64,000 bases of DNA from Escherichia coli (lineage in GTDB: Bacteria; Pseudomonadota; Gammaproteobacteria; Enterobacterales; Enterobacteriaceae), in NCBI RefSeq assembly GCF_003991155.1, contig NZ_CP031293.1, one strand, 5' to 3'. The notes under the pieces are model-generated. The model made no database searches. It was not told the origin of the DNA and worked only from the letters and a program-made list of their open reading frames with translations. Position numbers and translations under genes: made by a program. This document shows, piece by piece, positions 3,338 through 58,946 of this stretch. Each line of letters opens with the position of its first letter. Within the stretch, counting starts at the first letter, position 1.

Positions 3338-4117
3338 TTAGTAGCTGCTGGCGCTCTTACCGTCGCCGTGGCCCAGAGCCTTCAGCAGGCTTGCCAGCAG
3401 GCTGGAAGCACCAAAGCGGTAGTGACGCGCATCAGCCCAGTCAGCACCGAACAGTTCATCGGCGATGGAGAGATATTTCTGCGCATCTTCCGCAGTACGC
3501 ACGCCGCCCGCCGGTTTGAAACCAACGGTTTTTTCTACGCCCATATCGCGGATCACTTCCATCATGATGCGCGCGCTTTCCGGCGTCGCATTCACAGCCA
3601 CTTTACCGGTAGAGGTTTTGATGAAGTCAGCACCCGCTTTGATGGAGATTTCAGACGCTTTACGGATCAGCGCTTCGTCTTTCAGTTCTCCGGTTTCAAT
3701 AATCACTTTCAGCAGGACGTTCGCCGCAGCGCAAGCCTCTTTACAGGCTTTCACCAGGTCAAAACCAACCTGCTCGTTACCCGCCATCAGCGCGCGGTAC
3801 GGGAACACCACGTCAACTTCATCGGCACCGTAGGCGATTGCCGCACGGGTTTCTGCCAGCGCGATTTCGATGTCGTCGTTACCGTGTGGGAAGTTAGTTA
3901 CCGTAGCGATACGGATTTCCGGGGTGCCCTGCTCTTTCAGAGTTTTGCGAGCAATCGGGATAAAGCGAGGATAGATACAGATAGCGGCGGTATTGCCGAC
4001 CGGAGTTTTGGCCTGATGACACAGTGCGATCACTTTCTCATCGGTGTCGTCGTCATTCAGGGTGGTCAGGTCCATCAATTTCAGTGCACGCAGGCTGCTT
4101 GCTTTCAGATCAGTCAT
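3338..4117 (-). CDS. deoC: Deoxyribose-phosphate aldolase
   Basis: ORF 3338..4141; internal Met gives a 259-aa product [24 protein letters not shown]...; first gene of the deo operon. Confidence 0.92.
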
Positions 4118-4161
4118 TTCATTCTCCTGGCTTGTCGCCAATAAAATTCACCTTGCGAGTT

Positions 4162-4177
4162 TGTTAGTATTCTAACA
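4162..4177. promoter_or_regulatory. DeoR operator (O2, deoP2-proximal), near-palindrome TGTTAGTATTCTAACA
   Basis: 16-bp palindrome about 45 bp upstream of the deoC start; exactly 599 bp from the second copy at 4761. Confidence 0.75.
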
Positions 4178-4374
4178 TCTACTTCGCAACACACTTCGAT
4201 GTACATCACAATTAAGGAAATCTACTTACAAGTTTGCATCACTGTAATGCGATCTGGTTCAAATAATTCACTTTCAAATGAATGCGTCAGTGGTGGCAAA
4301 CGCATCAGGATCAAAGTGAACATCACGAAACTTCTTACAATGGCGCATCACCTTCGGCATAAAAGGAAAAGAAG

Positions 4375-5925
4375 ATGCCCACTTCTCATGAAAATGCACT
4401 GCAACAACGTTGCCAGCAAATTGTCACCAGCCCGGTACTTAGCCCGGAGCAGAAGCGCCATTTTCTGGCACTGGAAGCAGAAAACAATCTGCCTTACCCC
4501 GCGTTGCCTGCCGAAGCCCGCCGCGCGCTGGATGAGGGGGTAATCTGCGATATGTTTGAAGGTCATGCGCCGTACAAACCGCGCTATGTCTTACCCGATT
4601 ACGCCCGTTTTCTGGCGCACGGTTCCGAATGGCTGGAGCTGGAAGGCGCGAAAGACCTTGATGACGCACTCTCTCTGCTGACCATTCTTTACCACCACGT
4701 ACCGTCGGTCACATCGATGCCGGTCTACCTGGGGCAACTGGATGCGTTGTTGCAACCGTATGTTAGAATTCTAACACAAGACGAGATCGATATTCGAATA
4801 AAACGTTTCTGGCGTTACCTCGACAGAACCCTGCCAGATGCCTTTATGCACGCCAATATCGGCCCGTCTGATTCGCCCATTACCCGCGCAATCTTACGTG
4901 CAGACGCAGAGTTGAAGCAGGTTTCACCGAACCTGACCTTTATCTACGATCCTGAAATCACCCCTGATGACCTGCTGCTGGAAGTGGCGAAGAACATCTG
5001 TGAATGTAGCAAACCGCACATCGCCAACGGTCCGGTGCATGATAAAATTTTCACAAAAGGGGGCTACGGGATTGTGAGCTGTTACAACTCACTGCCGCTG
5101 GCGGGTGGTGGCAGCACGCTGGTACGCCTAAACCTGAAAGCCATTGCCGAGCGCAGTGAATCGCTGGAGGACTTCTTTACGCGCACTCTACCGCACTACT
5201 GCCAACAGCAGATCGCCATCATCGATGCGCGGTGTGAATTCCTCTATCAACAATCACACTTCTTTGAGAATAGCTTCCTGGTGAAAGAAGGGCTGATTAA
5301 CCCTGAACGTTTTGTGCCAATGTTTGGCATGTACGGACTGGCGGAAGCAGTTAACTTACTGTGTGAGAAAGAAGGAATTGTCGCACGTTACGGTAAAGAA
5401 GCCACCGCAAATGAAGTGGGTTATCGCATCAGCGCGCAACTGGCGGAGTTTGTCGCCAATACCCCTGTGAAATATGGCTGGCAAAAACGCGCCATGTTAC
5501 ACGCACAGTCGGGGATCAGTTCCGATATCGGCACCACGCCGGGCGCGCGTTTACCATATGGCGATGAGCCAGATCCGATTACCCATCTGCAAACTGTCGC
5601 CCCGCATCATGCTTATTATTATTCCGGCATCAGCGACATTCTGACGCTCGACGAAACCATCAAACGTAATCCGCAGGCGCTGGTACAGCTTTGCCTCGGT
5701 GCCTTTAAAGCCGGAATGCGTGAATTTACCGCCAATGTCAGCGGTAACGATCTGGTTCGCGTTACTGGTTATATGGTGCGTTTGTCGGATCTGGAAAAAT
5801 ATCGTGCCGAAGGTTCACGTACCAACACCACCTGGCTGGGCGAAGAGGCCGCACGCAACACTCGTATTCTGGAACGCCAGCCGCGCGTGATAAGCCATGA
5901 ACAGCAGATGCGCTTTAGTCAGTAA
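4375..5925 (+). CDS. yjjI: Glycyl-radical-enzyme-like protein YjjI (DUF3029)
   Basis: 516-aa ORF; C-terminal RVTGY motif resembles the glycine-radical signature RVSGY; followed by an overlapping radical SAM activase gene. Confidence 0.85.
4761..4776. promoter_or_regulatory. DeoR operator (O1, deoP1), perfect palindrome TGTTAGAATTCTAACA
   Basis: Perfect 16-bp palindrome; the 599-bp spacing from the 4162 site matches the known O1–O2 distance; lies inside the annotated yjjI ORF. Confidence 0.75.
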
Positions 5926-15506: not shown

Positions 15507-16295
15507 ATGGCCTATCGTTCCGCACCGCTCTATGAAGATGTTATCTGGCGAACGCATCTCCAGCCGCAGGATGCTGGGCTTGCACAAGCCGTACGGGCGA
15601 CGATCGCCGAACATCGTGAACATTTGCTGGAGTTTATCCGCCTGGATGAACCCGCTCCGCTTAACGCCATGACGCTGGCGCAATGGTCATCACCGAATGC
15701 GCTAAGTTCTCTACTCGCGGTCTATTCCGATCATATCTATCGCAACCAACCTTTGATGATCCGCGAGAACAAACCGCTGATCTCACTATGGGCACAATGG
15801 TATATCGGCCTGATGGTGCCACCATTAATGTTGGCGCTGCTGACGCAGGAAAAAGCATTAGATGTGTCGCCGGAACATTTCCACGTTGAGTTTCACGAAA
15901 CCGGACGCGCCGCCTGTTTCTGGGTCGATGTGTGTGAAGATAAAAACGCAACACCACATTCGCCGCAGCAGCGAATGGAAACGTTAATCAGTCAGGCGCT
16001 GGTTCCGGTTGTGCAGGCACTAGAAGCAACGGGAGAGATTAACGGTAAACTTATCTGGAGCAATACCGGTTATTTGATCAACTGGTATCTGACTGAGATG
16101 AAACAGCTGCTCGGCGAGGCGACGGTTGAATCGCTGCGCCATGCCCTCTTTTTTGAGAAAACGCTCACTACCGGTGAAGATAATCCACTCTGGCGTACCG
16201 TGGTGCTGCGCGACGGCCTGCTGGTGCGCCGCACTTGCTGCCAGCGTTATCGCTTGCCGGATGTGCAGCAATGTGGTGACTGTACGCTGAAATAG
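15507..16295 (+). CDS. fhuF: Ferric-siderophore reductase FhuF (2Fe-2S)
   Basis: 262 aa; C-terminal C-C-x10-C-x2-C cluster (RRTCCQRYRLPDVQQCGDCTLK). Confidence 0.9.
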   Translation: MAYRSAPLYEDVIWRTHLQPQDAGLAQAVRATIAEHREHLLEFIRLDEPAPLNAMTLAQWSSPNALSSLLAVYSDHIYRNQPLMIRENKPLISLWAQWYIGLMVPPLMLALLTQEKALDVSPEHFHVEFHETGRAACFWVDVCEDKNATPHSPQQRMETLISQALVPVVQALEATGEINGKLIWSNTGYLINWYLTEMKQLLGEATVESLRHALFFEKTLTTGEDNPLWRTVVLRDGLLVRRTCCQRYRLPDVQQCGDCTLK

Positions 16296-16333
16296 AAAAA
16301 TTTGCCGGGGAAGTAAACCCGGCATTAAGCGTA

Positions 16334-17011
16334 TTAATAGGGGTGCAACACGTTACTTGCTTCGCAATGACGCATACATAACAGAATGTCTGCGGCCTCC
16401 AACAGCCCTGCATCAGAACTGACGCCCAGTTTCGACATCACATTAAATTTATGTGCACGGATCGTTTTGATATTGCGTTTAAGCTGCTCGGCAATTTGTG
16501 TCATTGAGTAGCCACGCGACATAAAGCGCAATATTTCTCTCTCCGTCGGGCTTAACGTCCGGCTTTGGTTAATGTACCACTGATTGTTCAGTCGATCGGT
16601 CGCCTGACGTACACCATTTAATGACAAAAAGAGTTCCTGATGAAAAATCTCCAGCGTTGACGCTTTACTTAATACACCGTCCAGCGGTGATGGCGACAAT
16701 GAACCAATCAGCCGAGCTTCAATATCATCATCCGCAATAACTAAACGCCGGGTACGCGGAAACTTAATCGCCAGTTCAGTCAGGCAGGATAATCCCTCTC
16801 TGCGCGCACTTCTCATGGCAGAAAAAGAAAAAATGACCGCCGCAAACGAGATCCGCGACATGGCATCCTGAAATGACTCCTGACTGGTATAGGTATGGAG
16901 CTTATAAGGGTTACCCGCAAACTTTCTGAATAAACTCTCAATACCGATACTGCTCATGACGCATTTTTCTATGAGTGCGACATTTCTCTTCTTAATTCGG
17001 CTGTGTTCCAT
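16334..17011 (-). CDS. bglJ: LuxR-family transcriptional regulator BglJ
   Basis: 225 aa; C-terminal LuxR-type HTH ([45 protein letters not shown]); overlaps the yjjQ 3' end. Confidence 0.85.
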
Positions 17012-17694
17012 TCTGCGGCATCTCCATAAACAGAAGGCAAGTTAAGTTCTCTTGCACCCTGCGCGCTATTTATCCATGCATACATTTCAGCGTTGCTGTG
17101 AATTGCCAGTCGACGCATCGCACTGTTTTTTTGGGCGCTGATAGTTTTATTACTTTTCTTAAGCAATGAAGCTATCTGGTTGATGCCCCATCCTTTACCT
17201 AATAGCCGCAGCACTTTGCGCTCTGAAAGAGTGAGAATGACGGAGCGATAGCTAAAATCATGAGTTTCAGTCATTGCCGGGGAGGTCAGCATGGCGCTGA
17301 TACGCTCTGCGTGCGTATTGCCAGAACGCACGGTCTTAACCAGATTCTCAATGGGTTCAACATCAGACAATAATGTCGCCGTAGGGCACATGAGAAGTTC
17401 TACCGCCTGGGAATACCAGGAGCGTGACACCATGAAAACCCAGTGAATTTCCCGATATTGTGAAATTAAAGAATAATAATGTTCACAAACAAAACGTGGA
17501 TCTTCACTTTCACCGGCTAAATCAGCAATGACTAATCCGGAACGACGTAATTGTAATAAAGTAAGGTCCTCCGCAGAGGCGCTGGATATTATTTCATATT
17601 CAGGGAAGTGAGTCCTCATGACCTCTTTTAACCCTGCTTGCATGACAGGTATTTTACTGATAACAATTCCATTTTTGCAGCATCCTGGCAACAT
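16969..17694 (-). CDS. yjjQ: LuxR-family transcriptional regulator YjjQ
   Basis: 241 aa; C-terminal LuxR HTH ([43 protein letters not shown]); AT-rich upstream region. Confidence 0.85.
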
Positions 17695-18312
17695 ATTTCC
17701 TCCACATCCACTGTCTAAAAATCATGATGGTCTATTCAGGATATTCATTCCTTAAATGTTTCCAGCAAATTAATAGATTAAGCGAATAAATTATCCTTAG
17801 CATTCACTTTCATATCAGCATACTCCTGCTGCACAACAACTCCACTGCATGTGTCAGAAGGTTAGCATCAAATGATAACCTAGTGAAATAGCCTGGAGAC
17901 ATTTAAAATATCTACATTAAGTTGTTAGAAATACTTAATGAAAAACAGAATTCTCATTCACTTAATTTATAATTAACTGATATCCCTTCCCGCAGAATGC
18001 AAAATCACACAATCAATATTTATTCAATAAAATCTGATAGTTTTAACTTGTTAAAATTAAAAAACGCGCCCAGTTATCTTTTATCCTGATTCGTAAGGGC
18101 TAAACAATAAATTCATTATAGTGATAATATTCATGCGATAATTTGTTTGCGGCGAGAGATAATTCGCTTTTTAACACCGAGCTTCTCCCGATAACCAGGA
18201 TTAATCAGCGCAATTTTGATCTTAACCTGCCGCAAAACAACCGCGCTTCATGATACAAATGGATTCTCATAATTTGAACAATACGCAGCGCGTCTATGAC
18301 AAAGGGCGAGTT

Positions 18313-19083
18313 ATGCAAACTGAGCAACAGCGAGCCGTGACACGGCTTTGTATCCAGTGTGGATTATTTCTTTTGCAACATGGTGCGGAAAGCGCGTTGG
18401 TTGATGAGCTTTCCTCACGACTGGGTCGGGCGTTGGGAATGGACAGCGTCGAAAGTTCTATCTCTTCGAACGCCATAGTGCTGACAACTATTAAAGATGG
18501 GCAATGCCTGACATCTACACGTAAAAATCACGATCGCGGCATTAATATGCATGTGGTGACTGAAGTCCAGCACATTGTGATTCTGGCGGAGCACCATCTG
18601 CTGGATTACAAAGGCGTAGAGAAACGATTTAGCCAAATTCAGCCATTACGTTACCCAAGATGGCTGGTAGCCTTAATGGTTGGCCTTTCCTGCGCCTGTT
18701 TCTGTAAACTCAATAAAGGTGGCTGGGATGGTGCCGTCATCACCTTCTTTGCCAGTACGGCCGCGATGTATATCCGCCAGCTACTGGCACAACGTCATCT
18801 TCATCCACAGATCAACTTTTGCCTCACCGCTTTCGCCGCCACCACCATTTCCGGATTGCTTTTGCAACTTCCCACTTTCAGCAATACCCCCACCATTGCG
18901 ATGGCCGCCAGCGTTCTGCTGCTGGTGCCGGGCTTTCCGTTGATAAATGCCGTCGCCGATATGTTTAAAGGCCACATCAATACCGGACTGGCACGCTGGG
19001 CGATCGCCAGTCTGCTGACACTGGCTACCTGTGTCGGCGTAGTAATGGCACTGACGATTTGGGGGCTACGCGGATGGGTGTGA
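18313..19083 (+). CDS. yjjP: Inner-membrane protein YjjP (ThrE/DUF1212 family, putative succinate exporter subunit)
   Basis: ORF 18250..19083; start uncertain (internal Met at 18313 gives about 256 aa); multiple TM segments; overlaps yjjB. Confidence 0.8.
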
Positions 19084-19547
19084 TCGAATTTCTGTTAGCG
19101 TTGGCGCAGGATATGATCCTCGCCGCCATTCCAGCGGTCGGCTTTGCAATGGTGTTCAACGTTCCCGTGCGGGCGTTACGCTGGTGTGCGCTGCTTGGCT
19201 CGATAGGTCATGGTTCCCGAATGATCTTAATGACCAGCGGGTTGAATATTGAGTGGTCAACTTTTATGGCTTCTATGCTGGTCGGCACCATTGGTATTCA
19301 ATGGTCGCGCTGGTATCTGGCACATCCGAAAGTGTTTACCGTGGCGGCTGTTATCCCTATGTTCCCTGGCATATCAGCTTATACCGCAATGATTTCGGCG
19401 GTAAAAATCAGCCAGCTAGGTTACAGCGAACCGTTGATGATTACCCTGTTAACCAACTTTCTTACAGCGTCATCGATTGTTGGTGCGTTATCCATCGGTC
19501 TTTCCATTCCTGGATTATGGTTGTACCGCAAGCGCCCTCGCGTATAA
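19074..19547 (+). CDS. yjjB: Inner-membrane protein YjjB (DUF3815), partner of YjjP
   Basis: ORF 19059..19547; hydrophobic about 157 aa; ATG overlaps the yjjP stop. Confidence 0.8.
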
Positions 19548-19653
19548 AATTGCCTCGCTTAAGCACACGGATGAGAGACAGCCTCCTTTCCTCCGTGTGT
19601 TACTATAAAAGTTATCTCCCTTCTCGTTCATCGTTCCATATTTGAGAAACAGT

Positions 19654-20193
19654 ATGTCTTCCAGAGTTTTGACCCCGGACGTCGTTGGTATTGACGCCCT
19701 GGTACACGATCACCAAACCGTTCTGGCAAAAACTGAAGGCGGTGTGGTTGCCGTATTTGCTAACAATGCCCCGGCGTTTTATGCCGTTACGCCTGCACGC
19801 CTGGCTGAACTGCTGGCGCTGGAAGAAAAGCTGGCGCGTCCGGGAAGCGATGTCGCTCTGGACGATCAACTCTATCAGGAACCGCAAGCCGCTCCCGTTG
19901 CTGTACCCATGGGGAAATTTGCCATGTATCCGGACTGGCAACCCGATGCCGACTTTATCCGCCTGGCGGCGCTATGGGGCGTGGCACTAAGAGAGCCGGT
20001 GACCACCGAAGAACTGGCCTCATTCATTGCCTACTGGCAGGCGGAAGGTAAAGTCTTTCACCATGTGCAGTGGCAACAAAAACTGGCGCGCAGCCTGCAA
20101 ATCGGTCGTGCCAGCAACGGCGGACTGCCGAAACGAGATGTGAATACGGTCAGTGAACCTGACAGCCAAATTCCACCAGGATTCAGAGGGTAA
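19654..20193 (+). CDS. dnaT: Primosomal protein DnaT
   Basis: ORF 19642..20193; product [21 protein letters not shown]..., 179 aa; followed directly by dnaC. Confidence 0.9.
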
Positions 20194-29662: not shown

Positions 29663-30568
29663 ATGGTACAAAGTATCAATCTTCTTCGAACCAGTGATAC
29701 TCCTATGGCTTATAGCATCGATATCATCTCCTGCATTACCGAACGGTTTATGGCGTTAACAGCCACTGAAAAGCGTATCGCACAATTTATTCTTGATGAC
29801 GTCTCTGCCGCAGTAGAGTTGCCAATTGCTGAGCTGGCACGGTTAACGCAAACCAGTCAGGCGTCGGTGACGCGTTTTGCCCGTGCACTGGGGTGCAAAG
29901 ATGTCCGCGAGTTGAAAGTCAAACTGGCGCAGTCACTGGCTGTCGGGCAGCGGTTTATTCTCGATGTACCGGATCTTGACGGTGTTCAGGGGATCTACGA
30001 AGCGATTATTAGCGTGCTGGAGACGCATCGTCGTTCGCTGGATATGAATGCCATCAGCCAGGCTGTAAGCTGGTTAAGTCAGGCGCGGCAAATTCTTGCG
30101 TTAGGAACTGGCGGCGGTTCCACTATCTGTTCACAGGAGATTCAGTACCGTTTATTCCGTCTGGGGCTACCGGTGGTCAGTCAGAATGATGCCCTGATGA
30201 TGAGAATGATGTGCTCGGCAGTCATGCCGCAGGATGTGGTGATTGTGCTTTCGCTGGGCGGTTATACACCGGAAATCATCGAAAGTGCGGCAATCGCCCG
30301 TCAGTATGGCGCGCGTGTTATTGCCATTACGCCAGCACAAACACCGCTGGCGGAACAGGTGGATCTGGTATTGCCGTTACTGGTTCAGGAAAGTGATTAC
30401 ATCTTTAAGCCCACCCCTTCCCGCTACGCGATGTTAGCCATGGTCGATGTACTGGCAACAGAACTGGCAATGGCAAATAAAGCGCAGGCGAAAGATCGCC
30501 TGCGGCGGATAAAACTCGTGTTAGACAGCCACCGTGGGGGCGCTAACCGCCAGCCACTTGGCGATTAG
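29663..30568 (+). CDS. RpiR/MurR-family transcriptional regulator (HTH plus SIS sugar-phosphate-binding domain)
   Basis: 301-aa ORF (start may be internal, about 29705); HTH region TEKRIAQFILDD...ELARLTQTSQASVTRFARALG; SIS-like motif LGTGGGS. Confidence 0.75.
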   Translation: MVQSINLLRTSDTPMAYSIDIISCITERFMALTATEKRIAQFILDDVSAAVELPIAELARLTQTSQASVTRFARALGCKDVRELKVKLAQSLAVGQRFILDVPDLDGVQGIYEAIISVLETHRRSLDMNAISQAVSWLSQARQILALGTGGGSTICSQEIQYRLFRLGLPVVSQNDALMMRMMCSAVMPQDVVIVLSLGGYTPEIIESAAIARQYGARVIAITPAQTPLAEQVDLVLPLLVQESDYIFKPTPSRYAMLAMVDVLATELAMANKAQAKDRLRRIKLVLDSHRGGANRQPLGD

Positions 30569-30577
30569 CATTGTCGG

Positions 30578-32047
30578 TTATGCTTCTTCAGGTTTGGTGA
30601 TCACGACACTCTGGTTTTCACGCTCATTGGTGATAATAGCCAAAGCTTCTTCCCGGCTGACCTGACTTGCTGGCGTTACCAACGTCACCAGTACGCCAGC
30701 GACCAGGCTGCCCAGCACTGACGGAATACACGGGTTACCCCAGTAAGCCAGCCAGTCGGCATTCATCAGCACCACAATTGACATCACCATACCGCTCACT
30801 AACGCCGCCAGCGCGCCCTGCCAGTTAAAGCGTAGCCAGAAGCGACCGAGAATCGAGCAGATAAACAGCCCGGACATCAGCATCGAAATCATTTTGGTAA
30901 TGTAGCTGATGATGTCATTAGAGGTCAGAGCAAAGACCAGCGCCAGGCCAATAACAAAGGTCAACATCCAGCGTGAGTAAGTAATGGCCTTGTCCTCCGG
31001 CGGCATTCTGCCGGTAATCATGGTGTAGACGTCGCGCATCATAATCGCCACCGCCGCGATGGCATCGGAGCTGGCAGAAGACATGGTGGCTGAAAGCCCG
31101 GCAATCAGCACCACCAGCCCAAGAATGGCAGGTAAGAAACTGGTCGCGAACAAGAAGGCGTAGTTGCTGTTTTCCAGATTTGGGTTCATGGTGAACGCCG
31201 CCATGCCGATAATGGCAGGCAAAATCGAGAAGAACAGATATAACACCCCAGTAATAACAAACGAACGGCGTACAGAGGGAACATCTTTACCCGAGTAAAT
31301 ACGCTGGCGATAAGACGGTGTGGCCAGTACGCCGACACCAATAACCAGCGCCAGCGAAAGCGCAGGTAGAACGCCCATTTTATCAATCGCAAACAGGCTC
31401 ATCGCTTTTGGGTCCATCGCCTGTTCAATCGCACTCCAGCCGCCAACGTGAACAACGGCGAGAATAGCCATCAATATAAAGCCAAAGAACAGAATTAAGG
31501 CCTGAATGGTGTCTGTCCACACTACCGCCGAATAACCGCCGATAATAACGTAAATCGCAAAAGCTAAGGCGATAATTAATTTTGCTACAGTAAGATCAAT
31601 ACCTGTTGCCCAGGCAAGATACATACTGCCACCTAATATATGCGCCCCCAGCCAGCCAATAGAGGCAATAAATATCATCAGGCCGACAATATTTTTAATT
31701 AAATGACTCCCGCCAGTATAATAAGATATTTCTTCACTCATGGTCATAAAACGTAATTTACGTACCGGTGCAAACAGCCACGCCACCAGTAATATACCTA
31801 CGGCCCCACCGACGCCATAAAGCATTCCGGCCCAGCCATTGCTGTAGCCAAAGCCCACGGCGCCCATACTGGAACCCGTGCCAACCATCGTGGCAACGGT
31901 TGAGCCCAGCGTCAGAAACAGCGGCAACGAACGCCCGCCCAGCAGAAAATCTTCTCCGCTTTTCTGATTACGAGACACAAACCAACCAAGCCAAATCATG
32001 GCGATGGCATAAATAATAAAGCCGACTAAAAAGATATGACTGTTCAT
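30578..32047 (-). CDS. Sodium:solute symporter (SSS) family transporter
   Basis: 489 aa, highly hydrophobic, SSS-like N-terminus (GGRSLPLFLTLGSTVATMVGTGSSMG). Confidence 0.75.
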   Translation of the reverse strand: MNSHIFLVGFIIYAIAMIWLGWFVSRNQKSGEDFLLGGRSLPLFLTLGSTVATMVGTGSSMGAVGFGYSNGWAGMLYGVGGAVGILLVAWLFAPVRKLRFMTMSEEISYYTGGSHLIKNIVGLMIFIASIGWLGAHILGGSMYLAWATGIDLTVAKLIIALAFAIYVIIGGYSAVVWTDTIQALILFFGFILMAILAVVHVGGWSAIEQAMDPKAMSLFAIDKMGVLPALSLALVIGVGVLATPSYRQRIYSGKDVPSVRRSFVITGVLYLFFSILPAIIGMAAFTMNPNLENSNYAFLFATSFLPAILGLVVLIAGLSATMSSASSDAIAAVAIMMRDVYTMITGRMPPEDKAITYSRWMLTFVIGLALVFALTSNDIISYITKMISMLMSGLFICSILGRFWLRFNWQGALAALVSGMVMSIVVLMNADWLAYWGNPCIPSVLGSLVAGVLVTLVTPASQVSREEALAIITNERENQSVVITKPEEA

Positions 32048-32149
32048 AATTCACATCCTGCCAGTAGAGAGAGAATAAAGTAAGAGTTCCCGGAGTGCTG
32101 AATGTATTCAGCACTCAATTGCGGTCTATTTTTTTAATTCTTAAATTTA

Positions 32150-32539
32150 TTAGCGGGTCGCGTTATAACAGGTCACATCGACTTCAACTTTACAATCGAC
32201 AACCAGATCAGCTACACAACAAATACGTGCAGGCGGATTCTCGCCAAAAAATTCTCTGAATACTTTATTAAATGACTGGAAATAGCGGGCGTCGGTCAGG
32301 ATCACTTTCACGTGAACCACATCCGCCAGGCTATAACCGGCTTCAGTCATGATGTCGACACAGTTTTGGATCGCCAGTCGTGACTGTTCAACGATACCGC
32401 CTTCTACCACTTCACCGTTTTTCATGGGGGTTTGCCCGGAGACGTACAGCCAGCCGCCCGCCTCAACCGCCCTGGCAAACGGCAAATGCTGCCCGCCAGT
32501 GCCTGTTCCACCTTCCGTACCGTAACGTTTAATACTCAT
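32150..32539 (-). CDS. RidA/YjgF-family reactive-intermediate (enamine/imine) deaminase
   Basis: About 129 aa; pattern ...VSGQTP...AGYSLADVVHVKVILTD...PAR... typical of RidA family. Confidence 0.7.
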   Translation of the reverse strand: MSIKRYGTEGGTGTGGQHLPFARAVEAGGWLYVSGQTPMKNGEVVEGGIVEQSRLAIQNCVDIMTEAGYSLADVVHVKVILTDARYFQSFNKVFREFFGENPPARICCVADLVVDCKVEVDVTCYNATR

Positions 32540-32548
32540 ATTCACTCC

Positions 32549-34000
32549 TTAATGTGAGGTCTGGCGGCGCAGGAAGCGTCCCGCACGGCCTGTAATATGT
32601 TTATCGGGACCATAGCTCATAACGCCGTTCACCATCACCGCCTCAATGCCATCTGCCGGGCGTTTGGGATCAGAAAAGCTGGCAACATCACGAATGGTTT
32701 GTGGATCGAACAACACCAGGTCCGCAAAATAGCCGACTTTCACCAGCCCACGCTGAGGCAGACGAAAACGGCTGGCAGAAAGCCCGGTCATTTTGTGGAT
32801 AGCCGTGGTCAGTGGGAATAAGCCTTCATCACGGCAATAGTGACCCAGCACGCGAGGGAAAGCGCCCCATAAACGCGGATGCGGCATGGGATCATTGGGC
32901 AGTCCGTCAGAGCCAATCATACTGACCGGATAACTCAACACTCGGCGGACGTCGCGCTCGTCCATGTTGTAATAGATAGCCCCGGCAGGCATCAGCAACT
33001 TCGCGGCCTCCAGCATACTCATCTGCCAGTCGATGGCGATTTGCGCCAGTGTTTTCCCGGCCTGCTGCGGATGTGTTTGTGACCAGGTGATCACAATATC
33101 GAATTCGTCGGTGACTTGTTTGAGATCCAGCGTTGAAGAGCTGGCTGAGTAAGGGTAGACATCGCAGCCAATTTCCTGGTGTTGACGCATTTGGTCAAAA
33201 AAGGCCAACGTTTCTTTTGTCCGCCCCCAGTTTTTCGCCCCGGCGCATTTATGGTGGGAAACCACGACAGGCACTTTGCCATGACGCCCAATACGAAACG
33301 CCTCATCCAGGGCATCGAGAATCGGTTCAAATTCAGAACGCAGATGGGTGGTATAAACGCCCTTCTCACCGGCTAATTCTTCCGCCAGCGCCATGACTTC
33401 TTCGGTAGTCGCCTGAAATGCCGTTGCATAGGCCAGCCCGGAACTTAACCCCAGCGCCCCCTGACTCAACGCCAGACGTAAGTCGGCACGCATAGCGGCA
33501 ATTTCATCCACCGTCGCCGGGCGAAACAGGTCGTCCATATGGTTATTACGCAGCGCCGTATGACCAATCAGCGTGCCAACGTTCAGTGACGGCCTGGCTG
33601 CTTCCACTGCCTGGGCATAGCTTTCAACGGTAGGATAAATAAAGTGCTCTGCTTCCCCCAACAGATTCATCGGGTCAGGAACTTCACCTTTCATTTTCGC
33701 CGACGCCGCACTAATCCCGCAGTTACCGACAATCACCGTAGTGATCCCCTGGCTGATCTTTGGCAGATATTCCGGGATGCGAATAACGTTGATATCGTCA
33801 TGGGTATGAACGTCGATAAACCCTGGTGCCAGCACCCGCCCTTCCCCGTCAATGACCTGCTGCGCCGTAACGTTAAGCGCAGGGGCAATATCGACAATCC
33901 GATCACCTGTTATTGCCACGTCACCGCGAAATTCAGGGCCGCCGCTACCGTCGATAACGGTCACATTTTTGATTAACCAGTCAACCTGCATGTTCGTCAC
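32549..34000 (-). CDS. N-acyl-D-amino-acid deacylase (D-aminoacylase), amidohydrolase superfamily
   Basis: 483 aa; N-terminal IKNVTVIDGSG...APGFIDVHTHDD metal-binding motif characteristic of D-aminoacylases. Confidence 0.75.
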   Translation of the reverse strand: MTNMQVDWLIKNVTVIDGSGGPEFRGDVAITGDRIVDIAPALNVTAQQVIDGEGRVLAPGFIDVHTHDDINVIRIPEYLPKISQGITTVIVGNCGISAASAKMKGEVPDPMNLLGEAEHFIYPTVESYAQAVEAARPSLNVGTLIGHTALRNNHMDDLFRPATVDEIAAMRADLRLALSQGALGLSSGLAYATAFQATTEEVMALAEELAGEKGVYTTHLRSEFEPILDALDEAFRIGRHGKVPVVVSHHKCAGAKNWGRTKETLAFFDQMRQHQEIGCDVYPYSASSSTLDLKQVTDEFDIVITWSQTHPQQAGKTLAQIAIDWQMSMLEAAKLLMPAGAIYYNMDERDVRRVLSYPVSMIGSDGLPNDPMPHPRLWGAFPRVLGHYCRDEGLFPLTTAIHKMTGLSASRFRLPQRGLVKVGYFADLVLFDPQTIRDVASFSDPKRPADGIEAVMVNGVMSYGPDKHITGRAGRFLRRQTSH

Positions 34001-34191
34001 TCCATTTCTGCAATGGTGACAAGTTAACCATTTACAAGGACGAAAAACAGTGGAAAACTACGCAAAACCCAGATGATTTTATGATACTTTTATTCATAAA
34101 TAATAAGATAAATAAACTAAATATTTATATTTCATTTAGTTACAAATGATACTCACATCCGATACGGTGAAAAACTTAAAAGGTAAATGTT

Positions 34192-35412
34192 ATGAAATAC
34201 CACTCAGAACCTCTGGTTCCCCATAAATCTGCCCTGATGCAAATGCCCGCAAATCTCCTTGCCGAAGATGTCTGTTTACCTGCCGCGATCATTAAAAAGC
34301 AGGCCCTGGAGAACAACATTACGTGGATGCAACGCTACGCTGACGCGCGCGGCGTTTCACTGGCACCGCACGGTAAAACCACCATGACGCCGTGGATTTT
34401 TCAGGCGCAGCAGGCGGCTGGTGCCTGGGCAATAGGTGTCGGTAGCGCATGGCAGGCTGGTGCGGCAATGGCGAGCGGTATTCAGCGAGTGCTGATGGTT
34501 AACCAGCTGGTCGGCAAGGCGAATATGCAGTTGATTGCCCAGTTGCAACGACATTACCCGACGGTCGATTTTATCTGCTGTATCGACAGCATTGAGAACG
34601 CCCGCGCTTTGTCTGCCTTTTTTGCCAGTCAGCAACAGACACTGAACGTGATGATTGAGTTGGGTGTCCCCGGCGGGCGCTGTGGTTGCCGCTCAAGGGA
34701 TGCCGCACTGACACTGGCTAAACAGGCAGCCCAATTACCGGGGTTACGCCTGCGGGGGCTTGAGTTATATGAAGGCGTTTTACACGGTGACGCTCCACAA
34801 CCGCAGGTAGAAGCTCTGCTGCGGGATGCCGCACAACTGGCCTGTGATATGGCAAGTCTGGTTGATGGCGAGTTTATTCTCACCGGAGCAGGCACGGTCT
34901 GGTATGACGTGGTGTGCAATATCTGGCTGGCGGCAGAAAAGCCTGATAACTGCCGCATTGTTATTCGCCCTGGCTGCTACATCACTCACGACACCGGGAT
35001 CTACGACGCGGCACAACAACAGTTGCTTGCCCGTGATCCTGTGGCCTGCGATCTGGCAGGCGATCTCACATCTGCGCTGGAACTGGTCGCCATGGTGCAA
35101 TCGGTGCCGGAAGCTGATCGTGCGGTGGTAAATTTTGGTAAGCGTGATTGCGCCTTCGACGCCGGACTGCCGCAACCAGTCGCCCACTACCGCAACGGCA
35201 AATCACTGGCATTTGATCCACAGGCGATTCGCAGTACAGGTATTATGGATCAGCACTGCATGTTGCAACTGTCAGCTAATAGCGACGTGCAAGTGGGGGA
35301 TATTCTGGTGTTTGGCACATCGCATCCGTGCCTGACCTTCGACAAATGGAAAACGTTGTTATTGACTGATGACGACTACAACGTACTGGCAGAATTAGAC
35401 ACTCTCTTCTAA
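34192..35412 (+). CDS. DSD1-family PLP-dependent enzyme (alanine-racemase-fold D-serine dehydratase / D-threonine aldolase-like)
   Basis: 406 aa; putative PLP-lysine motif LAPHGKTTM near the N-terminus; divergent from the deacylase gene. Confidence 0.65.
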   Translation: MKYHSEPLVPHKSALMQMPANLLAEDVCLPAAIIKKQALENNITWMQRYADARGVSLAPHGKTTMTPWIFQAQQAAGAWAIGVGSAWQAGAAMASGIQRVLMVNQLVGKANMQLIAQLQRHYPTVDFICCIDSIENARALSAFFASQQQTLNVMIELGVPGGRCGCRSRDAALTLAKQAAQLPGLRLRGLELYEGVLHGDAPQPQVEALLRDAAQLACDMASLVDGEFILTGAGTVWYDVVCNIWLAAEKPDNCRIVIRPGCYITHDTGIYDAAQQQLLARDPVACDLAGDLTSALELVAMVQSVPEADRAVVNFGKRDCAFDAGLPQPVAHYRNGKSLAFDPQAIRSTGIMDQHCMLQLSANSDVQVGDILVFGTSHPCLTFDKWKTLLLTDDDYNVLAELDTLF

Positions 35413-39061: not shown

Positions 39062-39092
39062 GGCCGCCATGTGGCGGCCTGAATTATTTTTT
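39062..39092. terminator. Bidirectional hairpin terminator between convergent yjiA and brnA
   Basis: Inverted repeat GGCCGCCA/TGGCGGCC followed by a T-run (TGAATTATTTTTT). Confidence 0.6.
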
Positions 39093-39386
39093 GTTCTGAT
39101 CGCGCAGCATCGCTTCACGTAAAATTGCGTTCAGGCGAGTTTGATAGCCTTTACCTGGTCGCTTCAACCATTCCATCACATCAGAATCAATACGCACCGA
39201 GGCCTGAGTTTTCAATGGCCGATAAAACTTACCGCGTTCTGCGTTAGACCATTGCTCATCGCTGGAAGGTGGGATATCACTGTAATCAATATCTTCGTCG
39301 GATTTATTCGCCAGCGCCTTCAGTTCGGCCTCATGCTGCACATCGAGTGTAGAGGAGGTCCCTCGTTTATGTTTAACCATGCTCAT
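39084..39386 (-). CDS. brnA: BrnA-like antitoxin (COG3514 / DUF4415 family)
   Basis: About 100 aa from an internal ATG of ORF 39084..39527; motifs IDYSDIP and VRIDSDVMEWLKRPGKGYQTRLNAILREAM typical of BrnA; start overlaps the upstream toxin gene. Confidence 0.75.
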   Translation of the reverse strand: MSMVKHKRGTSSTLDVQHEAELKALANKSDEDIDYSDIPPSSDEQWSNAERGKFYRPLKTQASVRIDSDVMEWLKRPGKGYQTRLNAILREAMLRDQNKK

Positions 39387-39687
39387 AGCGATTCCTCTCT
39401 TTACGATCTGCTTTTCGTGCACTGATGATTCGAATAATTTCATTTCCGCTTTCGAAACGGATGGTATGCGCAACCAGAATAACCACGATGCCGTAAACCA
39501 GGCCGATTGTCTGCCAGCGATACTCACCGTTTTCTATGCGTTCTTGCTGTGACAAATGTTGTGGATCATCAAACACTAACACCGCATCTTCAAAGCGGAT
39601 GCCATGTTTCACCCGATTACTTTTGGCCTTGTTTGCATCCCATTCAAACTCCATTGGCATAGTTGCCATCCCTAATTGTATATACAA
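39373..39687 (-). CDS. brnT: BrnT-like toxin (COG2929 ribonuclease, RelE-like fold)
   Basis: 104-aa ORF (true start may be internal); motifs EFEWDANKAKSNRVKHGIRFEDAVLVFDDP and IRIISARKA typical of BrnT; toxin-first order with 14-nt overlap onto brnA. Confidence 0.75.
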   Translation of the reverse strand: MYIQLGMATMPMEFEWDANKAKSNRVKHGIRFEDAVLVFDDPQHLSQQERIENGEYRWQTIGLVYGIVVILVAHTIRFESGNEIIRIISARKADRKERNRYEHG

Positions 39688-39856
39688 AAATGTATCTACA
39701 ATTATTCTGCAATTATAGCGTTGATGTTGGAAATAGCATCACGTTTTGGATAATCAACCATGAAATTGACAATGAGTGAGTTGGACTTGATTCATCCAAT
39801 AGAATTTCTCGCCTGACATGGCACACTAAACACCTCGCTGTCGTTAAGGGATTACC

Positions 39857-41023
39857 GTGAAAAACTACAAAGTCATTACCCCGCTTTTTCCTACCTATGC
39901 GCAAGTTAAGGCTATGATGAAAGCCGTCTCAGGCTATTCCCTGAAAGCGGTGCGCAATATGATTACTGCCATTCACGAGCAAACCGGTACGCCGCAAAAA
40001 CCCGTTGACTGGTCAGAACCCGACCTGTGGATCAGCGAGCGCTTAACGGGTGAAGATGCCGACATCGCCCGTCGTATTTGGGATACCGATAATCACATCT
40101 TGAACCCGCGCCACAGCTACGGCTGCTACTTATTCCTCAACTATCCCCAGTTTGAGCTGATGGAAAGCACACCAGATGATATCTGGCAGCCCACCTCGCG
40201 CGGGCAAAAATTCCTGCAAGATGACGAAAAAACGCTGCGTTCACTGGACGACCAGGAAGGCATTCTGCAACTGCTTGAGCTGCTGGCTGGCCGGGAAATG
40301 TCGCGCCGCGCCGATTTATTGCCGGAATGGCAGGCCTTTTTGCATCAGCATTCGAAATTCGCGTCAGCAAGTTCAGTGAAAAGCACGCTCTACTCCCGTC
40401 TCTATAACCTTATCGACCGTGACATGGTTAACCGTGAAGGCATGAGCTATCGCATCACCGATACCGGGCGCGCCTGGCTTGGAAAAGCGTTGCCAGCACG
40501 AAAAAGCGATCCGCGTAAAGAGCTGTTGGAAGCGGTAAAACGCTATAACGAACAGCAAAAAGAGCTGCTGCGCGAACAAATCAGCACGATGAACCCGTAC
40601 AAATTTGAGCAACTGGTTGGTCAATTACTGGAAGCAATGGGCTACGAGCAGGTCGAAGTGACCAAAGCCTCAGGCGACAAAGGTGTGGACGTGATTGGTC
40701 AGGTGCAGGTCGGCATCACCACTATTACCGAAGTGGTGCAGGTCAAAAGAATGCAGAACACTATCACTCGCCCGTATATCGACCAGTTGCGCGGGGCGTT
40801 GCCTTACCACAAAGCCATTCGCGGTACGCTCATCACCACCGGGAAATTTGCGGCGAAATGTGCAGAAGCGGCGCTCTTTCCGGGTGCCGCGCCCATTACG
40901 CTTATCGACGGCGATCGTTTACTGGAACTGTTAATCGAAAATAACGTCGGCATTCGCCGCAGCAATGCAGTGGAATTGCTGGATGTGGATTTGCAGTTGT
41001 TTGATGAGCTGGAGATGGATTAA
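39857..41023 (+). CDS. Mrr-family (type IV-like) restriction endonuclease with extended N-terminal region
   Basis: 388 aa with GTG start; C-terminal Mrr catalytic-like core (NPYKFEQLVGQLLEAMGY...SGDKGVDVIG...EVVQVKR) and an Mrr-like C-terminal tail; N-terminal half about 80 aa longer than K-12 Mrr (304 aa, from memory). Confidence 0.7.
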   Translation: MKNYKVITPLFPTYAQVKAMMKAVSGYSLKAVRNMITAIHEQTGTPQKPVDWSEPDLWISERLTGEDADIARRIWDTDNHILNPRHSYGCYLFLNYPQFELMESTPDDIWQPTSRGQKFLQDDEKTLRSLDDQEGILQLLELLAGREMSRRADLLPEWQAFLHQHSKFASASSVKSTLYSRLYNLIDRDMVNREGMSYRITDTGRAWLGKALPARKSDPRKELLEAVKRYNEQQKELLREQISTMNPYKFEQLVGQLLEAMGYEQVEVTKASGDKGVDVIGQVQVGITTITEVVQVKRMQNTITRPYIDQLRGALPYHKAIRGTLITTGKFAAKCAEAALFPGAAPITLIDGDRLLELLIENNVGIRRSNAVELLDVDLQLFDELEMD

Positions 41024-41067
41024 AGGGCGAAATCTGCCGCCTCTACCATTACAATACGGAGTTCATC

Positions 41068-41244
41068 GTGGTCAAAGCACCAACTAAAAAAGCCAAAGCA
41101 AAGAAAAGCTCTGAAGAAACATTATGTGATACCACAAACCAATTTCGTGGTAGCGTTGAGTCCTCCGAATACAAGCACGTGGTGTTAAGCCTCGTGCTCC
41201 AGAAACTCATCAGCGATAAGTTTGAAGCACGCCGCAAAAAATGA
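41068..41244 (+). pseudogene. Type I R-M methyltransferase HsdM N-terminal fragment (about 58 codons, then stop)
   Basis: GTG start with GGAG RBS; translation ...LCDTTNQFRGSVESSEYKHVVLSLVLQKLISDKFEARRKK* resembles the HsdM N-terminal domain; ends at TGA within an A6 tract. Confidence 0.5.
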
Positions 41245-41903
41245 TTGCCGAAGCGTTAAAAGCTGATGGGATGGAAGAAATTTATTTTTCTGGCGACAAA
41301 AAAGCGGAATCTATCGATATTTTTGACGAAGATTATCTGGCGCGAATTAACAAGATCAAACTTCCAGCAACGAAGATCCTGTTATTACAAAAATTACTGG
41401 AAAAAGCGATCAGCGAGTTCAGGAAAGTGAACCAGTTGCAAGGGATTAACTTCACCCGCCGCTTCCAGGCGATTATAGATCGTTATAATGAGCGGCGAGA
41501 AGATGATGTACTCAACGGTGAAGAATTCGATACATTCAGTCAGGAAATGATTGATATTATCTATGATATTAAAACCGAAATGGGCACCTGGGCCGATTTA
41601 GGCATTGATATTGAAGAAAAAGCCTTTTTCGACATTCTTGCTCATATGCGCGATAAATATCAGTTCACCTATGACGATGAAAAAATGCTGTCACTGGCAA
41701 AAGAGATGAAAAGCGTTGTTGACAACACATCGAAATATCCTGACTGGAGTAAACGCGATGATATTAAAGCGAAACTGAAAGTTGAACTTATTCTGCTTCT
41801 ACACAAGCATAAGTTCCCGCCAGTAGCGAATGATGATGTTTATATGGGTGTGCTGGCACAGGCAGAGAATTTTAAAGAACATCATATGAGTGCTTTAAAT
41901 TAA
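41241..41903 (+). pseudogene. Type I restriction enzyme HsdR C-terminal fragment (DUF3387-like)
   Basis: 220-aa ORF starting at the ATGA overlap with the upstream fragment; motifs LGIDIEEKAFFDIL and ...LLLHKHKFPP... resemble the HsdR C-terminal domain as I recall it; no helicase/nuclease core present. Confidence 0.5.
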
Positions 41904-57443: not shown

Positions 57444-58115
57444 TTTGCGCACTCCTGACGTTTAGCAACATATGCGGCTTGCCCTGAACACCGGGCACCA
57501 CTGTATTGATGCTCATTTTCCATAGCCATTCCCTTTTGTTCATTACATCCATGTCAGTCTGAGACAGGCCTGAATCCTGTCAGCAAAGTATAAAACCTTA
57601 CTTGCCTATGAATATCTACTGACTTTTCAGGAAAAAAGTCATGATTTGATAAAAATCATCAAACTCAAAAAAAAACTGCTAGTATATTCTGAATATTCCG
57701 AATAGTTATGTAGATGAAAATACTTGTCACCGCCGCTACTTAATTCCGGTGGGAAATTATTTATTTCCGCATAATCAGCCATGTATTATTTGAAACAATT
57801 AGTTTGTAAATAATATAAATTGATAACATATCAAATACATCAAAAATACCATTCACAGGCATTATTAATATAGACATCAATATAGCAACATCAAATTCCA
57901 ATTAGTAATAAGATATGCTTTTTAATTGCATGAAAATAATTTCAAATGAGCGTTTTTTGATACTTTAGAGTGTTTCCTACCCTTTAATATCACCGTGTAG
58001 AGTTGATATCACTACAACAGAAACATGCATGTCATTTGTTTACTTCTCTTTTTACTACAGAAAAATTTATCTATTTTTCTAAACATCAGTGAAATACTCC
58101 TAAAAGGTAACTATT

Positions 58116-58946
58116 ATGTCTATGCCATTAAGCAATGCCCTTCAGAGCCAAATTATTACAGATAATCACTTCCTTCATCATCCAAAAGTCGACAGTGAGT
58201 TAACACGTCGATATGAATATGCACGCCTGGATACGGAAAATATCTATCTTCTGCCTCTTGCTCGTGGCAATAACCATAATTACGATGGAAAAAGCGTTGT
58301 CGAAATTAGAAAACTTGATATTAGTAAAGAGCCCTGGCCATTTAATTATGTGACAGAAACATGCAGAGAATCCGATGGTATTACAACAACAGGACGTATG
58401 CTCTATCGAAACTTGAAAATCACCACAGTTTTAGACGAAATATATGGTGGTATATGTAAAAAGGCGCATGCTGCCACAGAGTTAGCAGAAGGATTAAGGC
58501 TAAATTTATTTATGAAGAGCCCTTCCTATCCTGTTGAGGACTATACAGTTCATGAAATAACATTAGGCCCTGGTTGCAATGTTCCAGGTTACGCCGGAAC
58601 CACGATAGGATATATTTCAACCCTTCCAGCTTCTCAGGCAAAAAGATGGACCAATGAGCAGCCAAGGATTGATATCTATATTGATCAGATAATGACGGTA
58701 ACAGGGGTAGCAAATTCTTCCGGATTCGCCCTTGCCGCATTACTTAATGCTAATATTGAGTTGGGTAATGACCCAATAATTGGTATAGAAGCCTATCCCG
58801 GTACCGCGGAGATCCATGCAAAAATGGGATATAAAGTTATCCCGGGTGATGAAAATGCACCACTCAAACGTATGACTCTGCAACCGTCATCTCTTCCAGA
58901 ACTGTTTGAATTAAAAAATGGTGAATGGAATTATATTGGTAAATAA
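58116..58946 (+). CDS. yjiC: Uncharacterised protein YjiC
   Basis: 276-aa ORF with low-GC AT-rich codon usage, preceded by a long AT-rich intergenic region. Confidence 0.7.
   Translation: MSMPLSNALQSQIITDNHFLHHPKVDSELTRRYEYARLDTENIYLLPLARGNNHNYDGKSVVEIRKLDISKEPWPFNYVTETCRESDGITTTGRMLYRNLKITTVLDEIYGGICKKAHAATELAEGLRLNLFMKSPSYPVEDYTVHEITLGPGCNVPGYAGTTIGYISTLPASQAKRWTNEQPRIDIYIDQIMTVTGVANSSGFALAALLNANIELGNDPIIGIEAYPGTAEIHAKMGYKVIPGDENAPLKRMTLQPSSLPELFELKNGEWNYIGK

Follow-up and report, generated by a model that had tools for sequence, protein, structure and literature searches.

Why are the divergently transcribed yjjQ-bglJ and yjjP-yjjB genes of Escherichia coli held apart by a long and very AT-rich spacer, and does its composition reflect a control region, a foreign origin or simply the usual bias of intergenic DNA? 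We addressed this question in a stretch of 64,000 nucleotides of E. coli DNA (hereafter the window), whose positions 1-50000 are identical at every base to strain LWY24. Silencing of the yjjQ/yjjP spacer by H-NS is already known and was published for the same locus. Our own additions are modest and are offered as leads: an AT-rich spacer throughout the family, a centre whose sequence turns over, and a TTGATCT/extended -10 module upstream of which the IS insertions fall. Altogether, we consider it highly probable that the spacer is an H-NS-silenced, LeuO-relieved regulatory region common to two divergent transcription units. This reading draws on published K-12 work (H-NS repression, LeuO activation, in vitro binding to the spacer and the effect of IS insertions) and on the K-12 identity, compositional anatomy and conservation pattern computed here; from these we infer the centre as a nucleation zone, selection on composition, and the positions of the core promoters.

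Position and composition of the yjjQ/yjjP spacer

On one side of the spacer, two genes for LuxR/GerE-type regulators are carried by the minus strand: yjjQ (16969..17694; 241 aa; GerE E=6.7e-8), the first gene of the yjjQ-bglJ operon, and bglJ (16334..17011; 225 aa; Pfam GerE E=1.3e-12). Both YjjQ and BglJ have a C-terminal PF00196 GerE/LuxR HTH scoring above the curated cut-off, and the overlap of the two LuxR-type genes, to which the earlier note had drawn attention, is real and amounts to 43 bp. By gene order, fhuF (15507-16295, plus strand) lies beyond bglJ. On the other side, the plus strand carries yjjP (18313..19083), encoding a ThrE-family membrane protein of 256 aa (ThrE E=3.7e-69), and its co-transcribed partner yjjB (19074..19547; ThrE_2 family from Pfam and annotation), downstream of which are dnaT, dnaC and yjjA. 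In the K-12 annotation YjjQ is a transcriptional repressor, and YjjP/YjjB are putative succinate exporters. The earlier note had also placed yjjP in divergent orientation with a promoter region in common with yjjQ-bglJ; this gene layout holds and is the same as in K-12. The GC content is 44.5% in yjjQ (GC3 0.42) and 46% in bglJ (GC3 0.50), and the GC3 of the neighbours yjjP, yjjB, dnaT and dnaC ranges over 0.55-0.71.

The gap between yjjQ, which starts at 17694 on the minus strand, and the RefSeq ATG of yjjP at 18313 forms the divergent intergenic control region at 17695-18312. An interval of about 600 bp with low GC had been noted beforehand, and that description turns out to be exact: the spacer measures 618 bp and has a GC content of 34.3%, versus 51.3% for the whole window. 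Only 1.2% of 618-bp segments match or undercut this value, which is ~3.5 SD under the mean, and the core of the spacer (17900-18130) reaches 25.5% GC. TpA steps, A/T tracts and W-runs rank at the 92nd-99th percentile (TpA steps and W-runs at the 98th-99th), and W-runs of at least 8 bases are mostly inside the spacer centre, 17941-18194. The AT-rich patch does not stop at yjjQ: it covers a further ~300 bp, the 5′ part of that gene, where GC is 41% (17400-17700). By these measures the spacer is a long AT-rich tract of the kind bound by H-NS.

For spacer GC, the annotated intergenic gaps of positions 1-50000 are a fairer null than all segments of the window. Among these 38 gaps, the spacer is the longest (the runner-up has 466 bp) and merely the fourth lowest in GC; the median gap has ~43.5% GC, and the three gaps with a GC equal to or below that of the spacer are 38-200 bp long. 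Thus, the spacer is unusual by its length and AT-richness combined, and low GC by itself is unexceptional among gaps. Since low GC is common to several short nearby gaps, composition alone is no proof of silencing.

Other AT-rich gaps are found in the window. Its most AT-rich stretch (29% GC over 618 bp, at 57586-58203) is held by the gap at 57453-58115, flanked by two ORFs, one of 133 aa on the minus strand and one of 276 aa on the plus strand, with LysR-type and UxuR-like genes adjoining. This gap, which we take to be the iraD/yjiC region, is possibly a further H-NS-type tract. In the first 50 kb, the lowest GC among annotated gaps is that of the divergent spacer at 33992-34191 (200 bp, 29% GC), within a cluster (29705-35412) that encodes a MurR/RpiR regulator, a sodium:solute symporter, RidA, an N-acyl-D-amino-acid deacylase and an amino acid deaminase. 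In a decayed defence locus at 39084-41903, the neighbours of a brnT/brnA toxin-antitoxin pair are a gene for a restriction endonuclease and two truncated pseudogenes of type I restriction-modification, one retaining the N-terminal part of hsdM and the other a fragment of hsdR.

Control of the locus by H-NS and LeuO

The yjjQ-bglJ/yjjP region published for K-12 (Stratmann, Madhusudan & Schnetz 2008, J Bacteriol 190:926) is the same locus, with the same genes and the same 618-bp spacing to the current yjjP start. In K-12 MG1655 the equivalent interval is NC_000913.3 4602859-4603476; the spacer has 618 bp in both strains within an identical gene arrangement, and its identity to K-12 in three consecutive parts is 98.4, 92.5 and 95.8%. 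The strain-level substitutions are concentrated in the centre (7.5% divergence) and give no sign of a functional difference.

Work on K-12 also bears out the H-NS repression of yjjQ-bglJ that the earlier note had cited as known. The operon is repressed by H-NS and activated by LeuO, with H-NS being dominant in laboratory conditions (PMC5025477), and an hns stpA mutant needs bglJ deleted, as the yjjQ-bglJ operon is otherwise expressed (PMC3950696). Both the repression by H-NS and the activation by LeuO are restated in reviews (PMC4264507; PMC2646131). In a genomic SELEX table the spacer is listed as 'yjjP < HNS > yjjQ', that is, bound by H-NS in vitro, and it is also bound by the RpoD holoenzyme in genomic SELEX (PMC3946193). 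The same study predicted the promoters ATGAAA-17-TTTAAT for yjjP and CTGATA-17-GATAAT for yjjQ-bglJ (PMC3946193). The latter corresponds to our candidate sigma-70 promoter for yjjQ-bglJ at 17790..17818 on the minus strand, which is supported by a consensus scan and by that prediction. The Shimada-predicted yjjP promoter falls at 17939-17967, where the second hexamer reads CTTAAT here versus TTTAAT in K-12, a change of its first base; the real yjjP promoter is probably elsewhere (compare the element at 18251-18259 described below). Motif searches gave 11 matches in the window to the H-NS high-affinity motif TCGATAAATT with at most one mismatch, of which 0 in the spacer, and no RcsAB box with up to three mismatches in the spacer.

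Two starts have been in use for yjjP, and the gap is exactly 555 bp if the older one, ATG 18250, is taken. Stratmann and colleagues reportedly located H-NS binding, in 2008, in the middle of a '555-bp' spacer and away from the two promoters, with one LeuO site overlapping the yjjP promoter. We considered the longer yjjP from ATG 18250 and rejected it: a 1-nt indel breaks its frame in two Escherichia clades, and 18262-18300 is without family conservation and displays no conservation of the coding type. The indel, together with the loss of conservation past 18260, argues for 18313 as the real yjjP start.

From the published and computed evidence, the following scheme can be proposed. The yjjQ-bglJ unit, with its two LuxR-type regulators, and the yjjP-yjjB unit, which would specify a ThrE-family exporter, would share the 618-bp spacer, and the AT-rich centre, through its TpA steps and A/T tracts, would seed an extended nucleoprotein complex of H-NS (and StpA). 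This complex would hold the promoters at both spacer ends off in laboratory conditions. Binding of the LysR-type LeuO to the spacer would partially relieve the repression of yjjQ-bglJ, and BglJ, together with RcsB, would then activate leuO and bgl, among other loci. Expression of yjjP would be increased by insertions that come between the centre and the yjjP core promoter or that carry outward promoters of their own. The spacer would thereby represent a textbook-style case of H-NS silencing and LeuO counter-silencing. It would control BglJ, with its feedback on leuO and bgl, as well as YjjQ and an exporter repeatedly selected through IS insertions in the mouse gut.

Two known systems are close to this one. 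The control region of the bgl operon is, like the yjjQ/yjjP spacer, AT-rich and H-NS-silenced, and in both, LeuO or an IS that has inserted upstream of the promoter relieves the silencing (PMC2646131; PMC5493358). The bgl operon differs by an extra downstream H-NS site within the transcription unit and by its distribution: it is patchy among E. coli lineages (PMC2646131), whereas nearly all E. coli have the yjjQ/yjjP locus, in a synteny that extends family-wide. The leuO promoter region, silenced by H-NS/StpA, autoregulated and activated by BglJ-RcsB, belongs to the same circuit as the yjjQ/yjjP spacer, and both are reported as off through H-NS in laboratory conditions (PMC5025477). While BglJ-RcsB and LeuO sites have been mapped at leuO and create feedback loops there, the yjjQ/yjjP spacer is without any RcsAB-box-like sequence at the threshold used above.

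Fine structure, conservation and insertions within the spacer

Within Escherichia, the conserved parts of the spacer are 17695-17940 on the yjjQ side and 18195-18312 on the yjjP side. Between them lies the AT-rich centre (17941..18194), the presumptive zone of H-NS nucleation or binding, with 31% GC and a fast-evolving sequence. Its identity to K-12 is 92.5%, versus ~98% for the flanks. In comparison with cryptic-clade Escherichia and E. whittamii (loci L003-L005), the centre is ~52% identical and barely alignable, versus 80-86% identity for the flanks and 86-89% for the genes. Despite this turnover, the GC of the centre stays at 0.30-0.35 in the Escherichia alignment. The centre may have been replaced, or mutated to saturation, with its GC unchanged. 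The alignments suggest that the constraint on the centre would be one of composition, not of sequence, as an H-NS loading zone would need.

A conservation footprint of the family, drawn from 54 aligned members, revealed a few conserved islands: the yjjQ RBS GGAGG on the minus strand (plus-strand CCTCC at 17699-17703), a block at 17861-17940, the yjjP RBS AAGGGCGAG with its ATG, which are kept across the family, and a module upstream of yjjP. The block upstream of yjjQ (17861..17940, minus strand) appears moderately conserved, the alignment of such AT-rich DNA being uncertain; most genera have in it a minus-strand TGnGATAnT that resembles an extended -10, and the E. coli version of this element is degenerate. 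The region holds 5 sigma-70-like sites, compared with 4.5 +/- 2.5 in shuffled sequence, and thus shows no enrichment.

The module upstream of yjjP has two elements. The first is a near-invariant heptamer, TTGATCT (18216..18222, plus strand), with a GATC (Dam) sequence at 18218-18221, ~47 bp upstream of the presumed yjjP start site. The second is a candidate extended -10 of the yjjP promoter, TGATACAAA (18251..18259, plus strand), pointed out by the phylogenetic footprint, with TGnTAAAAt as family consensus. The layout reads TTGATCT, 28 nt, TGATACAAA, 53 nt and the yjjP ATG, and a TTGATCT-N28-TGnTAnAAn module with a fixed spacer of 27/28 nt is present at 59/80 Enterobacteriaceae loci. Between TTGATCT and the presumed yjjP start site there is no -35-like hexamer, and no known regulator motif was recognised in the TTGATCT module.

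A more far-reaching proposal combines these observations: the spacer might act as a silencer that has been maintained only for its composition, from before the Enterobacteriaceae radiation onwards, with in addition a conserved TTGATCT/GATC module, regulator-bound or methylation-sensitive, that governs YjjPB. We regard this as speculative and rather unlikely. If true, selection in the centre would act on AT-richness as the capacity to load H-NS and would leave the sequence free to turn over, and the module, bound by a regulator or sensitive to methylation, would control the YjjPB succinate exporter, a target of selection in the gut.

That selection has been documented during evolution of K-12 in the mouse gut, where IS1, IS2 and IS5 recurrently inserted in the yjjP/yjjQ spacer, in 57% of wild-type mice in one study (PMC4674774; PMC5094792). 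These insertions are beneficial, with s ~0.03-0.05, and one of them increased yjjP only ~2-fold, aerobically (PMC4674774; PMC5094792). The positions given relative to the yjjP ATG, -111, -125, -185, -236, -256, -267 and -385 (PMC5094792; PMC4674774 supplements), correspond to 18202, 18188, 18128, 18077, 18057, 18046 and 17928 in the window. Together with a natural IS1, they delimit an insertion zone at 17928..18202, and all the mapped insertions are upstream of the TTGATCT/extended -10 module. This arrangement is consistent with insertions that leave the yjjP core promoter intact but cut its link to the AT-rich centre.

In natural E. coli genomes the spacer is intact in 5400 of the 5424 that have a match, and the other 24 (~0.4%) give an estimate of how many could carry an insertion. 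A swine isolate (L083, NZ_CM135183.1) has a natural IS1 in the spacer, with its target at 18145-18154, and a cat isolate (L084, NZ_CP180597.1) has an IS1 accompanied by a deletion of yjjQ, the 5′ part of bglJ, the whole spacer and the first 38 nt of yjjP. The IS1 events in these two isolates resemble the insertions selected in the mouse gut.

Could the spacer be nothing more than a long divergent promoter and 5′-UTR region with the usual intergenic AT bias and no special role in silencing? Three shorter gaps of the same 50 kb have an equal or lower GC, around a median of ~43.5%, promoter-like sites are not in excess, and the spacer holds no match to the H-NS motif. Against these points, H-NS repression, LeuO activation and in vitro H-NS binding are published for the K-12 sequence, the spacer is the longest of the 38 gaps, and its AT content is kept family-wide while the sequence of the centre turns over; we therefore find this explanation very improbable. 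A gene for a small RNA or a small protein, so far unannotated, could also account for the length of the spacer, as an E. coli intergenic gap of 618 bp is a long one, the spacer includes ORFs of 21-36 aa, and the 250 bp next to yjjQ are fairly conserved within Escherichia. That a hidden gene is responsible seems hardly credible, given that an Rfam search of 16000-20000 at E<=1 returned nothing, that a terminator scan found none, and that the centre is unalignable even within the genus Escherichia. We also discarded the small ORFs of the spacer (at least 20 aa) as genes; they are situated in stretches that are unconserved across genera. Thus, an H-NS-silenced and LeuO-relieved control region, shared by both transcription units, is the reading that we retain.

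Distribution and origin of the locus

The locus was detected in 5424 of the 5426 complete E. coli genomes with a 3.3-kb query, several RefSeq strains matching at 100%. A YjjP-anchored scan with one genome per species yielded 80 Enterobacteriaceae loci, from Escherichia, Salmonella, Citrobacter, Enterobacter, Klebsiella, Kosakonia and other genera. At 76 of them, yjjQ-bglJ is upstream of and divergent from yjjP-yjjB, and at the remaining four the upstream sequence was too short to judge. Where yjjQ and yjjP are adjacent, the spacer measures 347-709 bp and always has 30-44% GC. The GC of yjjP is 50-61%, and yjjQ and bglJ are below yjjP in GC at every locus. Outside Escherichia, identity is 83-91% for YjjP, 47-74% for YjjQ and 35-69% for BglJ. 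The family-wide synteny and the near-universal presence argue that the yjjQ-bglJ/yjjP block is old and vertically inherited, with regulators that, judging from these sequence comparisons, are fast-evolving and AT-biased. If yjjQ-bglJ was acquired at all, this may have happened before the Enterobacteriaceae radiation.

The AT-richness could alternatively be read as the mark of a horizontally acquired yjjQ-bglJ island that H-NS silences as foreign, in line with the xenogeneic origin put forward in the earlier note. The composition fits: yjjQ and bglJ are deviant, with a GC3 of 0.42 and 0.50 against 0.55-0.71 in the neighbours, YjjQ and BglJ evolve much faster than the proteins around them, and three tRNA-Leu genes are located 2.6 kb from the block. 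With respect to the features expected of a genomic island, a deviant composition was indeed found, and neither a patchy distribution nor mobility signatures at the borders were. The tRNA genes are separated from bglJ by yjjZ and fhuF; no integrase, transposase, IS or flanking repeats are annotated in the block in this strain, and a repeat search of 17500-18500 returned just short two-copy matches at chance level. The presence of the locus in all but two of the E. coli genomes already refutes a recent origin, and the shared synteny of the species loci also speaks against an island. Moreover, the GC of yjjQ and bglJ is low relative to yjjP in every genus, which would not be expected of an old import drifting toward the composition of its host. 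The claim of a xenogeneic origin thus fails as regards a recent event or an acquired island, for which composition alone fits, and we judge the island reading improbable.

We therefore return to an old and vertically inherited block under H-NS control. As the arrangement is family-wide, AT-richness and H-NS silencing are here no sign of a recent foreign origin, which calls for caution in scans that equate low GC with horizontal transfer.

The organisation of the block varies in part of the family. At ~22 loci (Klebsiella, Raoultella, Kluyvera and the C. amalonaticus group), yjjQ and yjjP are separated by ~2.6 kb with pobR-like and pobA-like genes. Identified by eye, these encode an AraC-type regulator of 302 aa and a PobA-like flavin monooxygenase (4-hydroxybenzoate hydroxylase) of 394 aa. 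At most of the pob-carrying loci, fhuF was not found within 6 kb upstream of yjjP. In the K. pneumoniae locus (L057), the pobR-like/pobA-like insert occupies 3641-5723.
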